Below are positions 801-13,711 of a DNA stretch of 64,000 bases, piece by piece. Source of the stretch: Podarcis vaucheri (Eukaryota); NCBI GenBank assembly GCA_965113315.1, contig OZ220368.1; one strand, given 5' to 3'. The notes below the pieces were generated by a model. It had not been told where the DNA came from and did no database searches. It worked only from the letters and a program-made list of their open reading frames with translations. Both the position numbers and the translations under genes were made by a program. Position 1 is the first letter of the stretch. Each line of letters begins with the position of its first letter.

Positions 801-2795
801 TACCAAAAGGATCCTCAGCAGCTTTCATTCTTAGATAAGCAAGAATGCTGTACCTTCACATCCACAGCAATCTTGGCTCTAGGGGCCTTTTTTCATCCAT
901 AAACCATTTTCTCCTTTTAAAGGGCTGGATGAAGAACATGCATGGGGAAGAAAACCAGCTGTGAAAAAGTTAGCAGTATCACATACTGCAGACAGGAAGG
1001 GAAAATCACCCCACAACCTCAGACTGGGAAGCAGAGTGGAAGAAGATGAGTCAATGACATGATGATGGGAACTGTATTTCGGGATATATGAATAGAATAT
1101 GATGGGACAGTCACAGGATGCAAATGTTCCACTTGCAAGGTCCAGGCAGAACTATCCTCCTGTGAGCCTGACAATGTGAAAAAAGACACAGACAGACACA
1201 GAGGTGGGAAGGAGCTGAGAAAGAAAGAGCAAGGCTGCAGAAGCAGAGCATCATGGGGCAGGATAGAGAACAAATGAGCCACAGAACTGGGGAAGAAAGG
1301 ATAGATTGGCTCCCATGGAGAATAACTAAAGAGAGAATGCAAGTAGGGTGACCCTTTGATCTATTTTTTAAAAATAGCGTTGACATTAGGAAGTGTTAGA
1401 CAACAAGGCAGTTCAACAGAGGGTGTGAAGTCCCTATCAGTAGACATTGTAGATATAATACACCACACCAAAAACAAGTCTGGTAGAATTAACCATGTAT
1501 GGGGAAGCAGAAGAAAGTGGGTCAGGAAACTGGAAACTCTATTCAATGGCTCAGAGCTCATCAGGGTCATATTCACATCCCCGTGAGCAGAAGCCTATCT
1601 GCTCATAGGTGTGCAGCCTGCTCCAAGCGACAGCTTTAAGCCCCAGGCACTGCCAACTCCAGACCCTTCACTCAGCAGCAGCAGACTCTGATCTCAGGAG
1701 CCGACAGCCTGCTGCCTTTCCCTGCACACGCAGGCTTTGAAAGCAACACTGGTGAGAGAGAGAGAGATAATGGGCATATACACCCAGGGAGAGCTACACT
1801 CTTCCTGACATTTAGGTAAGAACTAGGAGCAGAATCTATTAAAATTTGTATGCTGTGCAGGTTAATAGTCTATGCACAAGGGGAGAACGGGGCCCCATGA
1901 AGGCAAAGTGTTCTTTTGGAGCAACCCAGGTGAAGGTTGGAGAAGAGGGGAGTGTGGCATAGCATCCTTCCTTGCCAAGCGATGACACCAACACTGAGAG
2001 AGTTAGCATAAGATATAATCTGATGCCATTTTGTATTAACTGCACTTTGCAGTCTTCCTTACAAAAAGTGGTCAAACCCGGCAGTTACAAACCAAGATGT
2101 GGAATGGAAAATTTACCAGTGATTTATTTTGCTGTGGAATCCCCCCCCCCCCATTTTGTAAGTTGGATGCCAACTGCAAACACAGGCAAGCTTGCCGATG
2201 CCCAAGTTGTTTTGCTTTGCTTACAAAATATTAGAAAAATGAACATGGTAATTTGGGAGTGTAATAAAAGTTGCCAACACAAACTGAATTATCTACAGTG
2301 TAAATTAGCCTAATAGCATAAGAAAGTTTCCCAGAAAGGTATCTAATTCAAATTTTTTGGAAGATCCACACTACAGTACTGGTTACAAAATATCAAAAAG
2401 CATAGCTAAAGCCTTCCTCTCCAGAAAGCTACACAGCTACACAATAGATGCAGTTGATTAAAGGTGCTCCTGGAAACCCCCAAACCTGCCTGTCAAAAAA
2501 TAAGACAGGGTTTAAGGGTACTTCTAGACATGTAGCTAGTTTGATGCGGAGACTGTCACTTCTGTCTAATAGAGGTAGGGCTGCTACCAGTCCAGAACTA
2601 TCTACCAGAACTATCTTCATCTTGCCTAAATTCAAATCTAGCTTGTTTAACTATCCACTCCATCAAAATGTGTCAAGATTAACTAAAACCAAAATAGTAG
2701 TACCTGTTCATTTAGTTAACAACATATACAGCTTGGTGTTATGTCAATAATATCACTGCCCAAAGTTCCAGATTATATTCAGTTTATATATATAT

Positions 2796-2915
2796 CTCTG
2801 TTCCAGTAACAAGAAGCCGAAAGCACCAGCCTGAAGATGACGAGTGAGACCTCGTCGAAACGTCGCACAGACACCCCGACTCTTACACGGGAAGACACCC
2901 GAAGACACCAAAACC

Positions 2916-2918
<3 letters not shown>
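2796..2918 (+). mobile_element. Penelope-like retroelement (PLE) terminal fragment inserted in (TA)n
   Basis: CTGAAGATGACGAGTGAGACCTCGTCGAAACGTCG...CCCGAAGACACCAAAACCTGC resembles squamate Penelope termini; flanked by TA runs (2785-2795, 2919-2965). Confidence 0.75.
2829..2866 (+). ncRNA. Minimal type I hammerhead ribozyme motif (PLE-associated)
   Basis: CUGAAGA core, extra U, stem II GACGAG/CUCGUC with 6-nt loop, GAAA, palindromic ACGU stem III, GUC cleavage triplet; stem I only 2 bp. Confidence 0.65.

Positions 2919-2965
<47 letters not shown>
2919..2965. repeat. (AT)n microsatellite
   Basis: About 23 AT units. Confidence 0.95.
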
Positions 2966-2968
<3 letters not shown>

Positions 2969-3560
2969 GATACCACAAACATCAAATTATATTCGAATAT
3001 TCACCAAACATATAACCAAAGACACAACAAGGTGGTAGTGGAATATAATGGAAATATGGGGAAACAGTTGCGGGTTATATTAATATCTGATGGACATGAG
3101 ACAAAATTTGGAATTTGGTGGGAAAGACCACTAGATGCATTTATATAATTATAATTGCATATCACATACTTATAAATCTGCTAGTAATTTTTCTGGAATA
3201 TCCTAATGAAGATGTGAGATCAGAACATGGAAATTTATTTGAGTTTTATTAGCTGCTGCCAAAATATATATTTTGGAAGTGAAATGGTATATTCCAATCA
3301 TTTTAACAGAATGAGAATGGTTTGATAGAATTTGGTATCTTGCTACAGTAACGAAATTAAAGAGAAATAGTACAATTAAGCAAAAGTAGAGAAAGAAATG
3401 GGACAATTTGAGAACTTATGGTCCTCCTTTCTAATGTAGAAAATTAGATCAACTAGCATAAATTTAAGTTTTTTCTCTGGTTATAATAATTTATTGCATA
3501 AAATATAGTTATATTTTTATTATATTATACCAAAGCTATATTTTAATGCATACTGATTTA
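2966..3560 (+). mobile_element. Degraded L1/Tx1-clade LINE, ORF2 C-terminus (Zn-knuckle region) and AT-rich 3' end
   Basis: Broken frames read WKYGETVAGYINI*WT*D (cf. WKCxxxxGTxxHxWWTC) and LLAAAKIYILEVKWYIPIILTE*EWFDRIWYLA (cf. LxAARxxIxxKWK...EW). Confidence 0.6.
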
Positions 3561-7479: not shown

Positions 7480-7546
7480 CGATGCCGGTGATGGTGGCGG
7501 CCGCGGTCAGCCCCAGCCCCGAATACAGCAGCGCGAGCCCGGACAT
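7480..7546 (-). CDS. ATP6V0B: V-type proton ATPase 21 kDa proteolipid subunit c'' - coding exon 1 only (rest of gene left of window)
   Basis: gccgccATG start; translates MSGLALLYSGLGLTAAATITGI+G, matching the vertebrate ATP6V0B N-terminus (MTGLALLYSG...); 67 nt, phase-1 GTTAGT donor; in a CpG island; syntenic with DPH2/IPO13. Exon 2 (CYTIFDLGFRFDVAW) not found in 1-7479. Confidence 0.9.
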
Positions 7547-8791: not shown

Positions 8792-11700
8792 GTGAGACAG
8801 TAGTTTGCCCTTCGCCAGAAAGCTACAGGCATGAATGTCAGTTCTTCCCCTAGAGTTAGTGGACATCCCCGCCCCAAATAATCAAGTATTGGGGCACTAA
8901 ATATGGGGGACTTTAAAAAGGTTTTGTTTACCAAGTATGTCAAACAAATAAATATGTAGAAACAGCTCACACACTACAGTATTTAAGGTTGAGATGTGGA
9001 ATCCTCCCCCAAGGGCCACATCTCCCAGGGGGAACATGCCAGCGATGGGAGAGCTGAGGCTGCCCAAGGCACATCTCTTCTCCCCCCCCCACCTTTTCCT
9101 TTTCACCAGTGATGTGAGGCGCTTTTTGGTGCTTTATTTTTCCACAAGGAAAAAATATGTTTCATAAGGTCATGAGCAACAATGAATGGATGCCAGCTGC
9201 AAATACAGCATTAGGCAAACTTGGCAGTTTCAAGTTTTTAGCTCTTGTTTGCTAAATACAAGTAAAATAAAAAAAACAAATTAGACCATTCTCCAAGGCA
9301 GGTATTCTTCAACCTTTTCAGACCCAGGACCCACTTTTAACCCCAACATACTATGGAAACCCATTTCTTAATCTTTTATCATATATTTGCATGGTGGTAA
9401 TGCTCCTGTTGTGACCCATCTTTGATCAGGCCGTGACCCAGCAGTGGGTCCAAGTCCACCTGTTGAAGGCCAGTGTTCTAGGGCATCACATATTGCCCTG
9501 TTCACACTATCCTAATTTTCAAAGGATTTTTTTCCAGTTCAGAATTGACTGGCAAACCCACATCACTGCTTACACATGTATGTCCATCCATTCTATTCTC
9601 TCTCCCCACCCATTCTTCCTCCTTTTTTTTGCTTTTCTCTTTGCCCTTCCCTGCTGCAATTAAGCTTAGAGGAAATTCATTTCACTCAGTATGCAGGTTT
9701 TTGAGGGAGTCACAGTGCAGATGGAGGAGTAAATTAACCCTCTCCCCAGTGCTGCCACCCTCACCCTTCAAACCCCTCCCCTCATGGCAATTAGACTTAC
9801 AAGAAAAAATCCTGTCCATGTGGATGGGACCTTTTCCTTCAAAACCTAATTCCCCAGGAAACCCACAGTACTGCTAGCTGTGTACAGTGGACATGTCCTG
9901 AATAATTATCTTGGGTTTGTTTTGTAGGTTGCTCTTCAGTTTCCCGATGAACTCTTGCCAGATTCAGCAAGCATTGCTAGGAAGATGGAAGCAGCAACTG
10001 GCGCCAAAATGTACATTCTGGGGGACACATCATACGGCAGGTGAGGTCACAGCAGGAACCTCCTTCCGCATAAACACACGATAGAAGCTCAGGCCATAGT
10101 CCTATAGACACTTGGGAGTAAGCCTCATTGAAAACATGGAACTTAGTGCTAAGAACATGCATAGGACTATAGTGCAGGCTTGCATTTTCAAGGGGTTCTA
10201 CAGTAATATGTCAGCCTCTGGATGTTCAGCAGTCTCTTGACTGCCTCTGCTGGGGTGGGGGGACTATTTATGACAAGAGAGTAGGACTTTGGGATCATTA
10301 GTTGCTCCCCAGTTCCTGCATCTTGGGTGTTGGTAACAGAGTATTTTTATCATCTGCTGTCAGGCCTGGGGCTGCTTGCATGCTGAGTGAGCTGGTGACA
10401 GGGGAAATCCAGTCTCTACAATGGCAACCCATTTACTACAAAGGAAGCATTTTTGTGTGTGCTAGAGGTGGTAGGTGTTTTGAGGAAAGCTGCCCTCTAT
10501 AGCTAATGCTGTTGCTTTTCTTTAGCTGTTGCGTGGATGAAGTGGCAGCAGAGCACGTGGGCACTGAGGCTGTGGTGCACTACGGGCCTGCCTGCTTGAG
10601 TCCCTGCCGCAAGCTGCCCGTGCTCCATGTGTTTGGCCGCAAACAACTAGAGGTGGCGCGCTGCACAGAAGTCTTCCGGGAGTTGTATCCAGACCCCCTA
10701 GCTCATGTGGTTGTGCTGAATGAAGTGGCCTATTTTCATTCTCTAGGTGAGACCATGGGGATCACAATGTTGGAAGTGGGTGGTATTCAAAAGATACATC
10801 AGGCCAGGATGGGAAAAAGCTACAGTGGGCATCCTCTAACCGCAAACAGTGCTCTCCTTGCCAGTCCTGCCCTTTATGTCTTATCTGCCTTCCAATGTTA
10901 CTCAGTCCCAGCTTTTAACCCTCTCTACTATCCTCAGGGCTGGATTAATCAGGAAATGCCTATTTCTCTCTGTGCTCCCCACCTCATTTGCCACTAGGAT
11001 ACTAGTTTGCAGTTTCCTCAACAATAACATTATTCAGAGCAAAGCTAATAGACCTGCATGCTAATGTTCAAAGGCAAAACCACATAAATTAATCAGTTCA
11101 GTTTACTCCTTTGTAGTTTGAATGAACTAGGAATGTGGTCAGTTAATGCACAGATACCTGCCAAAGAGGCTTTTATAAGTTCTATGATTCTATGAAAATG
11201 AGAAAAGTCAAAACAGTACTCCTGTCAATGTTCCAATTTATATTTCTGATTTGGCGGCTGTAGGGGGTTGTTCTCTTTTAAAGGACCACAGAAGTAATAT
11301 TTCCTTGTAATATTAGCTTTCAGTTAACTCCCCTCTGTTTACATCCTTTAGATCAGGGATGGGGAACCTATTGCTCTCCAGATGTTGTTGGACTAGAACT
11401 CTCATGATCCCTGACCACTGGCTATGCTGCATGAGGCTGATAGGAGTTCGCCATCACAGCTTTAAACCTAGTGTCTAGCAAAAGGGCCCTTCCCTGTCCA
11501 TGGAAGAGGCCTGCTGAGTATTTGGAACAGTGAGATGTGACAGTTATTGTCTCTAAATTGAATGACTTTTCATTTCTCTTCCCCTCAGATAACCTGGCCT
11601 CTCAGCTGCACCCCATTTATCCCAATGTAGTTTTCTCTCAACTGGATAACAAGGAACTTCAGCCAGTTCCCGGGCTGGTGCAGAAATTTGGGCGGCACTT

Positions 11701-13711
11701 TGTAGTAGACAGTCAGCATGGTCTTGACAACTACGCCATGTTCTACGTGGGTTGTGAAGGCCCAGAACTCACAAACTTCATGCTGAGCTGGAACCGGTGT
11801 CCCTTCAGCTCCTTTAATCCTCAGACAGGACAAGGCCGACGGGAAACATTGGATGTGAACCGGGCCCTGAGGCGACGCCTCTATCTAGTGGAGCGGGCAC
11901 GGGATGCCCAAGTAGTGGGCATTGTGGTGGGCACTCTTGGTGTGGCAGACTACTTGTCTGTTCTGGAGCATCTGCGTGGCATCATTCAGCGGGCAGGCAA
12001 ACGGGCCTATACCTTGGCTGTGGGTAAACCCAACCCTGCAAAGCTGGCAAACCTTCTAGAGGTGGACATTTTTGTGTTGGTAGCCTGCCCACAGAACTCT
12101 TTGCTTGATTCAGCTGACTTCTACCGGCCTGTGGTCACACCCTACGAGCTGGAGATGGCATGTAATCCAGCACGGACCTGGACAGGCAGCTATGTCACAG
12201 ATTTCCGTCACCTCCTACCAGGTAATACTAGGCTTCGTAACTGGAGAAATGAGTAGAGGCAACAACCAGTGAGCTCCTTTCACACCAGACTCTGGAAATT
12301 ATGTTTGGTCACACACTTCCAAAATTCTCTCTGCAGGCATAAGGGTTTGAAAGTTGTTTATTATAATGATAACTTGAGTCTCACAATGAATTGCAATTTC
12401 AGACTCATAAAAGCTGCACAGCTCTACCATTGCTCTTGGGCCTGCCCTGAAGGCATAGTCTGCTGCAGCAGCAATGACCATAAAGTTCCCTACACCCACA
12501 CAAAGACAGACCAGCGGCAGGGAACAATTTCTACATTGGGGATAATTCAAATACATAGGGTTGTATCCAAAATAGTAACATGTCCTGTCAGTGCAAAGAC
12601 TTTCACTTGCGCAATGAAACTCCCCCCTCCTCTTGCCCTGAATCTATTCTAGGGGTTCCCCTAACCCTTCAGAGCTGATTTGGGAAAGGAGGAAGTGGGG
12701 AAGTTCCATTGTGCAAGCAGATATAATTGGGCTATGCTTACCTCCCATAGTCCTCTCCACATTTGCCATATGAAATGGTGGTCAATGAAGGGCAAGGCAG
12801 TGGGGAGCTCAGTGTGGTGTAGGTGCAGGAAAGGAAGCATCAGAGTAGCTATGCTCTTATCAAGTTGGGAATGTTGGGAAGCCAGGCGAGCAATACCAAC
12901 CCCACCCACTGCTGTTTTTCCATGTGCTAATTCTGCACGTCTTGATCATCCTTAGGTGGGTAAAAGCAGGGCATGATTCTGGATGGGCCAAGCTTAGCTA
13001 TTACTCTTTCCCTTGCTGTTGCCTGCAGGAGCATGTGCGCACACCCCTTTCCCAGACAAGGTTTCAGAGGCGGACAGTGAACCCAGCATTTCACTCATCA
13101 CCGGCGAGCTACGCTCAACTTGTCTTTCTACAGCACCAGACCCAGAGCCAAGCTCTGGCACTTCTGTGACCTGCCGCAGCTATATGCATATGGCTGAGAG
13201 TAGCCCAGCAGGTATGTGTCCGAGGGGTCGGGAATGGATTATGTTAACGGTCCACACAAATGGTGGCAAATCTCATCTGTTAGGACCTTTCTTGTGACTA
13301 ATGGTTGTTCCTGGGAGATGAAAATGGCTGTTTTGAAGTCTGTTATGTGGTGAATGTTTCAAAGGTTTATGCTAGTGTCAGAATAGCAATTAGCAGCCTA
13401 GTCGCCTTCCTCCATTTACAGTTGCAGTAACGAGTGGGGCAGTGGGCCCCGTGGGCTCTTTCATCCATAATCTTGAATATACTGTAAGCTCTGTTCTCTT
13501 CCAGAGGTGTGTCTGGAATTCAGCTTGGGGAAATCATTTATGCCATGATCATTGTTCTTGTTTGATTGTTGTTGTTTTGGTCTTAGCCTCATTTTTGGAG
13601 TCACGAAGCTGGCGGGGGCTGGAGCAGCAGCTGGGGCAGTCAGCAGTCACAAAAGCTGTGGCTGGACGACGGGGGATTGCCATTGCATATGAAGATGAGC
13701 CTTCTGGATGA
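8639..13711 (+). CDS. DPH2: Diphthamide biosynthesis 2 (2-(3-amino-3-carboxypropyl)histidine synthase subunit 2), full gene; join(8639-8791,9928-10040,10526-10746,11589-12221,13029-13211,13587-13711)=1428 nt, 475 aa
   Basis: Perfect Kozak gccaccATGG; motifs [57 protein letters not shown]; all GT-AG, phases close. Confidence 0.97.
9298..9475. mobile_element. Old non-autonomous hAT (Charlie/MER5-like)
   Basis: CAGGTATTCTTCAACCTTT...GTTGAAGGCCAGTG degenerate TIRs, internal GACCCA repeats. Confidence 0.5.
9928..10040 (+). CDS. DPH2: DPH2 coding exon 2 ([10 protein letters not shown]...ILGDTSYGS)
   Basis: ttttgtag| ... AG|GTGAGG. Confidence 0.95.
10526..10746 (+). CDS. DPH2: DPH2 coding exon 3 ([10 protein letters not shown]...AYFHSL)
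   Basis: ttttctttag| ... G|GTGAGA; inside ORF 10506-10997. Confidence 0.95.
11354..11450. mobile_element. Diverged/truncated hAT MITE of the ACTACAACTCCC family
   Basis: CAGGGATGGGGAACC...CTCCAGATGTTGTTGGACTAGAACTCTCATGATCCCTGACCACTGG. Confidence 0.6.
11589..12221 (+). CDS. DPH2: DPH2 coding exon 4 (DNLASQLHP...DFRHLLP)
   Basis: cttcccctcag| ... G|GTAATA; inside ORF 11537-12256. Confidence 0.95.
13029..13211 (+). CDS. DPH2: DPH2 coding exon 5 (GACAHTPFP...SLITGELR...AESSPA)
   Basis: gcctgcag| ... G|GTATGT. Confidence 0.93.
13587..13711 (+). CDS. DPH2: DPH2 coding exon 6 ([13 protein letters not shown]...AYEDEPSG*)
   Basis: ttttggtcttag|; TGA at 13709-13711. Confidence 0.95.

Follow-up and report, generated by a model that had tools for sequence, protein, structure and literature searches.

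The window analysed here, a stretch of 64,000 nucleotides from Podarcis vaucheri (GenBank assembly GCA_965113315.1, contig OZ220368.1), contains a short hammerhead-bearing insert that likely lies in antisense orientation within intron 1 of ATP6V0B, a gene on the minus strand (Table 1). This orientation, already proposed in the initial annotation, is borne out by an internal exon to the left of the window, which matches V-ATPase c'' (E 1.8e-10), and by a likely first coding exon to the right of the insert, whose encoded N-terminus we take to be that of ATP6V0B. A database search with exon 1 returned no match, and the short ATP6V0B exons were undetected by Pfam. Positions 10503-12256 on the plus strand hold a diphthamide synthesis gene, likely DPH2 (Pfam PF01866), which appears to be divergent from ATP6V0B across a CpG island at about 7-8.5 kb. 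As described before, the insert is flanked by TA runs on both sides and rich in CpG dinucleotides for its surroundings, with nine of them in 123 bp and an observed/expected ratio of 1.03, against 0.21 in the whole window and 0.14-0.18 in the flanks. The sequence to its right had been described as an old L1 fossil. It is indeed an old dispersed repeat, but its identity as L1 is our presumption, made from a resemblance of its translation to the C-terminus of L1 ORF2; a Pfam search with two short flank frames found no L1 domain, and no homology was found on the left side of the insert.

Table 1. Features at the insertion site and the intact copy used as reference. Element positions (-41, +82 and so on) are numbered relative to the A of the start codon of the Penelope-like element (PLE) ORF.
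Feature	Position	Strand	Basis or remark
Left TA run	2785..2795	.	Could include a target-site duplication of at most 11 bp, which a dinucleotide repeat would mask
Tail-less, 5'-truncated stub of a Penelope/Poseidon-type PLE	2796..2918	+	pLTR/ORF junction, -41 to +82
5' end of the stub, at -41	2796	+	At the sharp family boundary -41/-42; likely transcription start
2-bp stem I	2829-2830 with 2865-2866	+	Contiguous pairing does not extend beyond these 2 bp
Minimal type I hammerhead core	2831..2864	+	Sequence; architecture as in the available text of PMC4209133; cut predicted after C2864
Start codon of the PLE ORF	2837..2839	+	Within the ribozyme; the U of the codon is the unpaired base preceding stem II
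(AT)23.5 tract	2919..2965	.	Adjoins the 3' end of the element; preferred target
Old dispersed repeat right of the insert	3037..3495 (about)	+	67-71% identity to 7 other places
ATP6V0B coding exon 1 (likely)	7480..7546	-	ATG, donor site, presumed ATP6V0B N-terminus
Intact full-length copy of the family	L031:870-4250 (G000:C1:2173500-2179000)		pLTR-ORF-pLTR, period 2,961; sits in an (AAT)n tract, not (AT)n

All structural parts of the hammerhead named in the initial annotation are present in the sequence, from the catalytic core to the 2-bp stem I. In 5' to 3' order, the core comprises CUGAAGA (2831-2837), U2838, a stem II in which all six pairs are of the Watson-Crick type (2839-2844 with 2851-2856, enclosing a 6-nt loop at 2845-2850), GAAA (2857-2860), the loopless palindrome ACGU (2860-2863), which constitutes stem III, and C17 (C2864), with GUC as the cleavage triplet. 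The CUGANGA, GAAA and NUH motifs, the G10.1-C11.1 pair, the extra base after A9, the palindromic positions 15.2-16.2 and the location in the pLTR are thus all those of a minimal PLE hammerhead. As far as described in the available text of Cervera and de la Pena (2014; PMC4209133), the minimal hammerheads of metazoan PLEs are likewise of type I, with an extra base between A9 and G10.1 and a G10.1-C11.1 pair, and have in common with the motif in the window a long stem II and palindromic positions 15.2-16.2 without a loop 3. According to the same source, stem I measures 2 bp in the Penelope element of D. virilis, as it does here, compared to 4-5 bp in Schistosoma. A longer stem I, formed by the 5' end of the insert with positions +31 to +35, was considered and rejected, given that +31 varies in the genome and +31/+32 differ in a related species. 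D. virilis Penelope also has an intron in its pLTR; an equivalent intron before stem I is weakly disfavoured for the Podarcis family, with no splice joint in the pLTR listed in four low-depth RNA runs of a related species.

A descriptor consisting of the core, a stem II of at least 4 bp and paired positions 15.2/16.2 matched once in the window and never in 60 simulated 64-kb sequences. The motif had been singled out as the most unusual RNA structure of the window, and it is the sole match to the descriptor there; it is, however, far from unique, being one of more than 11,000 copies in the genome. The Rfam search proposed earlier yielded no hammerhead family at E <= 10 and 11 weak unrelated matches, a result that we attribute to the missing stems I and III and that weakens the case for a canonical hammerhead, not that for a minimal one.

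As initially proposed, the insert is almost certainly a solo PLE terminus, derived from a family of the Penelope/Poseidon type. It matches the pLTR/ORF junction of an intact copy (L031; Table 1) at 125 of 125 bases, which provides the anticipated link to an ORF with reverse transcriptase (RT) and GIY-YIG domains. The open frame of this copy spans 915 amino acids, or 906 when counted from the first Met, and its product contains an RVT_1 domain (E 6.7e-15). GIY-YIG was not detected in the whole protein at E 0.001; the C-terminal piece scored 23.2 bits, just over the cutoff of 22.6. The translation shows a CxxC between both halves of the GIY-YIG motif and a linker without CX2-5CxxC. By the linker Zn-finger criterion that separates Penelope/Poseidon from other clades (available text of PMC8557442), the missing extra linker Zn-finger points to the Penelope/Poseidon clade, a placement based on sequence features and not on a tree. 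A PDB search gave four matches, all of them distant RTs, with no solved PLE structure among them. No second PLE piece turned up elsewhere in the window or within 6 kb to the left of the insert.

The genome-wide copy-number check, conducted by pattern search, found 11,023 exact occurrences of the 36-nt hammerhead core in the 1.6-Gb genome and none of the reversed control pattern. Since the number of cores increased only to 11,413 (12 in the reversed control) when stem II and its loop were left free, 96.6% of such cores are identical. The mismatch to the intact copy amounts to 0.5% over 56,330 aligned bases from 100 copies. By these measures, the family, which is protein-coding, is very young, in line with the recent insertion assumed in the initial annotation. 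For the covariation check, this near-identity left few changes available, and in related species no core change was listed, with too few nearby changes to be informative. A search for other hammerhead families with a different stem II gave 5 matches versus 31 in the reversed control. From this search, which thus stayed below its control, come two mutually related hammerhead-like motifs (L107:1501-1533 and L108:1501-1533; CUGAUGA ... GAAAC-GUH, in which a stem II of 4 bp could form) that are unrelated to the PLE family in the window and comprise two copies only.

The 3' flank consists of (AT)n in 90 of 100 copies, in agreement with the expected preference for AT-rich simple repeats, and sister copies at non-repeat sites show target duplications of 7-13 bp (L014/L015, L021). 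Many traits of the family, namely the element type, the minimal hammerhead, the one-sided tail, the inverted copies and the targeting of microsatellites, have already been published for other PLEs. In the available text of PMC8557442, PMC3846280 and PMC2377424, EN+ PLEs are described to have 5' truncations, partial tandems, an inverted 5' copy and microsatellite targets, and the Podarcis family correspondingly includes pseudo-LTR partial tandems, inverted 5'-truncated copies and an optional 30-nt tail that is often one-sided. The same sources report a tail of 30-40 bp, often at one end only, a start site inside the pLTR and, for rotifer pLTRs, TATA/Inr-like motifs. The inverted-pLTR insertions of EN+ PLEs described there differ from the copy in the window, which consists of one arm and has no inverted partner. 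Minimal hammerheads are reported to occur in thousands per genome, mostly as single motifs, in reptiles as well as other groups (available text of PMC4209133); the near-invariance of the Podarcis copies resembles the state of the currently invading D. virilis element and differs from that of most genomes covered in this source.

The closest relative with a tested hammerhead is PAc (Poseidon_Ac) of Anolis carolinensis, as presented in the available parts of Frangieh et al. (2024; PMC11167929). Its start codon also lies within the ribozyme, its two internal RT start sites match the two 3' ends of the Podarcis family (see below), and its tail region (Fig. S1 of that study) resembles the Podarcis tail, as judged by eye only. 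To the extent that the short printed RNA alone allows this judgement, PAc is a distinct family. The two also differ in their targets, with PAc preferring ATT in vitro, whereas the Podarcis family shows a strong preference for (TA)n. Moreover, the fixed 5' boundary and the pairing of a short with a long arm, both seen in the Podarcis family, are absent from the description of PAc in these parts of the study.

The ends of the copies were mapped against the intact copy for the first 100 copies listed (contig C1, 1.1-13.7 Mb), a sample that was selected for an intact hammerhead core and whose members occur in pairs and clusters and are not independent. The 3' ends fell into two groups, with 54 copies ending at +77 to +84, 44 at +113 to +118 and two elsewhere. 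The family thus has two fixed 3' ends, +82/84 and +112/118, which differ by a 30-nt tail. The copy in the window carries the shorter one, its boundary at +82 being ambiguous up to +84, as the next two bases (AT) fit element and target alike. On the 5' side, the copies vary continuously in extent up to the full-length state, with 57 of the 100 reaching beyond -100. At the same time, 25 copies end at -37 to -42, compared to three at -43 to -48, two of which are mismatch artefacts, and four at -49 to -100. In full pLTRs, this boundary lies 29-30 nt downstream of a TATA-like box, which begins at -71 and is absent from the stub.

Most 5' ends at the boundary belong to head-to-head pairs. The genome contains 191 perfect fold-backs that have their centre at -42/-41, and 439 head-to-head junctions fall into the interval -37 to -52 (including a few nested double counts), compared to 23 in the interval -93 to -108, a control that represents a single choice and is located farther from the priming site. 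Among the first 50 junctions listed, 22 are exact fold-backs and two go past -42. AT-flanked ends at -41, like that of the copy in the window, were found at 15 sites in the genome, several of them in complex arrays. The sample of 100 copies contains 38 head-to-head pairs within 5 kb (for example L009/L010), in which the outer ends are short and long in 31 cases, both short in four, both long in two and of another type in one. Short and long outer ends are hence combined in 31 of 37 pairs, versus 49% expected (p 1.6e-5). In a set of 15 perfect fold-backs (L065-L079), five of which overlap the sample of 100 copies, a short and a tailed outer end were combined in 13 cases as scored by script and in 14 as scored by eye, one tail variant having been mis-scored. 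In one cluster (L006:1689-2700, L007 and L008), the translations of the inverted arms differ from the main copy by numerous substitutions that occur in groups and may be of an editing-like kind.

RNA reads were available from four runs of a related species, all of them fragmented libraries that contributed 565-775 reads each and covered both strands. Both 3' ends of the family recur in these runs as loose read ends that continue into (AT)n. Among the 6 of 8 start piles shown for these fragmented, low-depth libraries, none was located at -41/-42 or at the cleavage site. The back-joints all agree either with the tandem period of 2,961 nt or with individual rearranged copies. A check for an empty allele found no contig joint skipping the insert in four runs, with the AT tract itself skipped by the tool.

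The stub, in which the pLTR/ORF junction is present as a short copy on its own, very probably arose from one aborted insertion into a (TA)n tract, with the hammerhead as a likely inert passenger. In the available parts of PMC11167929, the PAc protein is described to cut AT-rich DNA on both strands and to initiate reverse transcription internally, at two neighbouring positions of the RNA, with uncut RNA as the main template and the hammerhead cleaving only in the presence of the protein. By analogy, the proximal priming site (+82) would have been used on the 5' pLTR of the transcript, and the cDNA would have run for 123 nt to the 5' end of the RNA (G-42, about 29 nt past the TATA-like box) before being joined to the other DNA end. 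Since such a cDNA spans the cleavage site, its template would have been uncut. We consider it fairly probable that the cDNA indeed ran off at the transcription start site. Copies reaching far upstream would then stem from tandem transcripts on which the downstream pLTR was primed. Head-to-head pairs would form when both DNA ends are primed, one at each internal site. We lean, with some caution, towards the view that the stub is the record of a 'strong-stop'-like cDNA, produced in a process in which the ends of a staggered cut are primed at +82 and +112 and, whenever this takes place on the 5' pLTR of the transcript, synthesis runs off at G-42 and the products are joined through their terminal GC. 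Junctions at L064:2300-2800 (G000:C1 near 3032300) and L041 contain short repeats of the element's first bases between their arms, which suggests that slippage or re-priming took place repeatedly where the 5' boundary lies. In D. virilis Penelope, the promoter is internal and has no TATA box (available text of PMC2377424), so that the TATA-based reading is not a general one. In the available text of the literature searched, neither a fixed 5' boundary at the start site nor twin priming was found for PLEs.

A less probable, though by no means negligible, interpretation is that the -41/-42 boundary represents a preferred RT stop, a template-switch point or the product of antisense self-priming; the stub may also be the one arm remaining of a head-to-head pair. 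Palindromes at the inverted junctions of rotifer PLEs have been read as self-priming on an antisense template (available text of PMC3846280), fold-back joins could be promoted by the GC at -42/-41, which is complementary to itself, more than half of the sampled copies extend beyond -100, and the RNA reads of the related species show no start pile at the boundary. Against this stands the one-sidedness of the boundary, at which ends gather at or just inside -42, with hardly any of the listed junctions crossing it, as well as its position 29 nt past a TATA-like box and at a pyrimidine-purine step. Furthermore, AT-flanked, non-palindromic ends are likewise found at -41, and the predominance of pairs with one short and one long outer end fits two separately primed cDNAs on a sense template better than a single self-primed strand. 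It is far less probable that the 123-bp unit is an independent, non-autonomous ribozyme element, similar to retrozymes or SINEs, that spreads via self-cleaved or circular RNA; in its favour are the short copies with similar ends that recur in the genome and the existence of metazoan retrozymes with type I hammerheads, which may use PLE enzymes (available text of PMC7229834). The non-LTR retrozymes described there also carry a type I hammerhead in a short animal repeat, but they are non-coding tandem units of 150-450 bp with canonical hammerheads, whereas the stub is a fragment of a coding PLE, every base of it being pLTR/ORF sequence, has a minimal hammerhead and is not part of a tandem array. 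Moreover, none of the 100 core-selected copies ends at the cleavage site (+28), as no 3' end falls short of +77, and the 5' ends range continuously up to full length. As judged from its solo state, its minimal hammerhead and its derivation from a coding PLE, the insert is not a retrozyme, and the proposal of a small ribozyme-bearing mobile unit finds no support, the stub being part of a continuous series in which copies of a coding element are 5'-truncated to different extents.

Almost equally improbable is the notion of an active ribozyme that cleaves a putative plus-strand transcript at this locus, antisense to ATP6V0B, either alone or with another copy in trans, and thereby has a regulatory effect. 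The core needed for catalysis is intact, and the many identical copies, which are transcribed on both strands in a related species, could in principle supply partners; however, the insertion is very recent, so that no selection is implied. Cleavage as a dimer, invoked in the initial annotation, is indeed a published proposal, and dimers of minimal hammerheads cleave weakly in vitro, but single ones show no cleavage (available text of PMC4209133), and the PAc hammerhead requires protein, with no reads ending at its cut site (available parts of PMC11167929). In our folding analysis, the monomer of the insert forms only stem II as a stable structure (z +0.78), and a dimer with stem III and one stem I, the latter just 2 bp in length, reached -19.7 kcal/mol, compared to -29.4 kcal/mol for the best two-strand fold, in which stem III is absent, so that the active dimer is not the preferred structure. 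Given the antisense orientation of the stub, the ATP6V0B pre-mRNA would carry the non-catalytic strand and would not be cleaved. As a solo copy in a (TA)n tract, antisense within intron 1 and devoid of both the TATA-like box and a partner copy, the stub is therefore likely inert, with its hammerhead a passenger.

As a single representative of a young family with more than 11,000 copies, the locus is probably neutral in itself. The family to which it belongs, near-invariant, with an intact ORF and sharp ends, offers material on how PLEs finish their insertion, a stage that the only in-vitro system, as described in the available parts of PMC11167929, does not settle, and its intact copy is a ready candidate for in-vitro work. 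If the 5' boundary corresponds to the transcription start, the inverted structures common among PLEs would be a consequence of sense RNA being primed twice, and making the template would not require the hammerhead. Likewise, if the stub does record a 'strong-stop'-like cDNA, the same process would account for inversions of the head-to-head type, for tails on one side only and for solo stubs made on a sense template left uncut by the ribozyme, and would replace antisense self-priming as their source.
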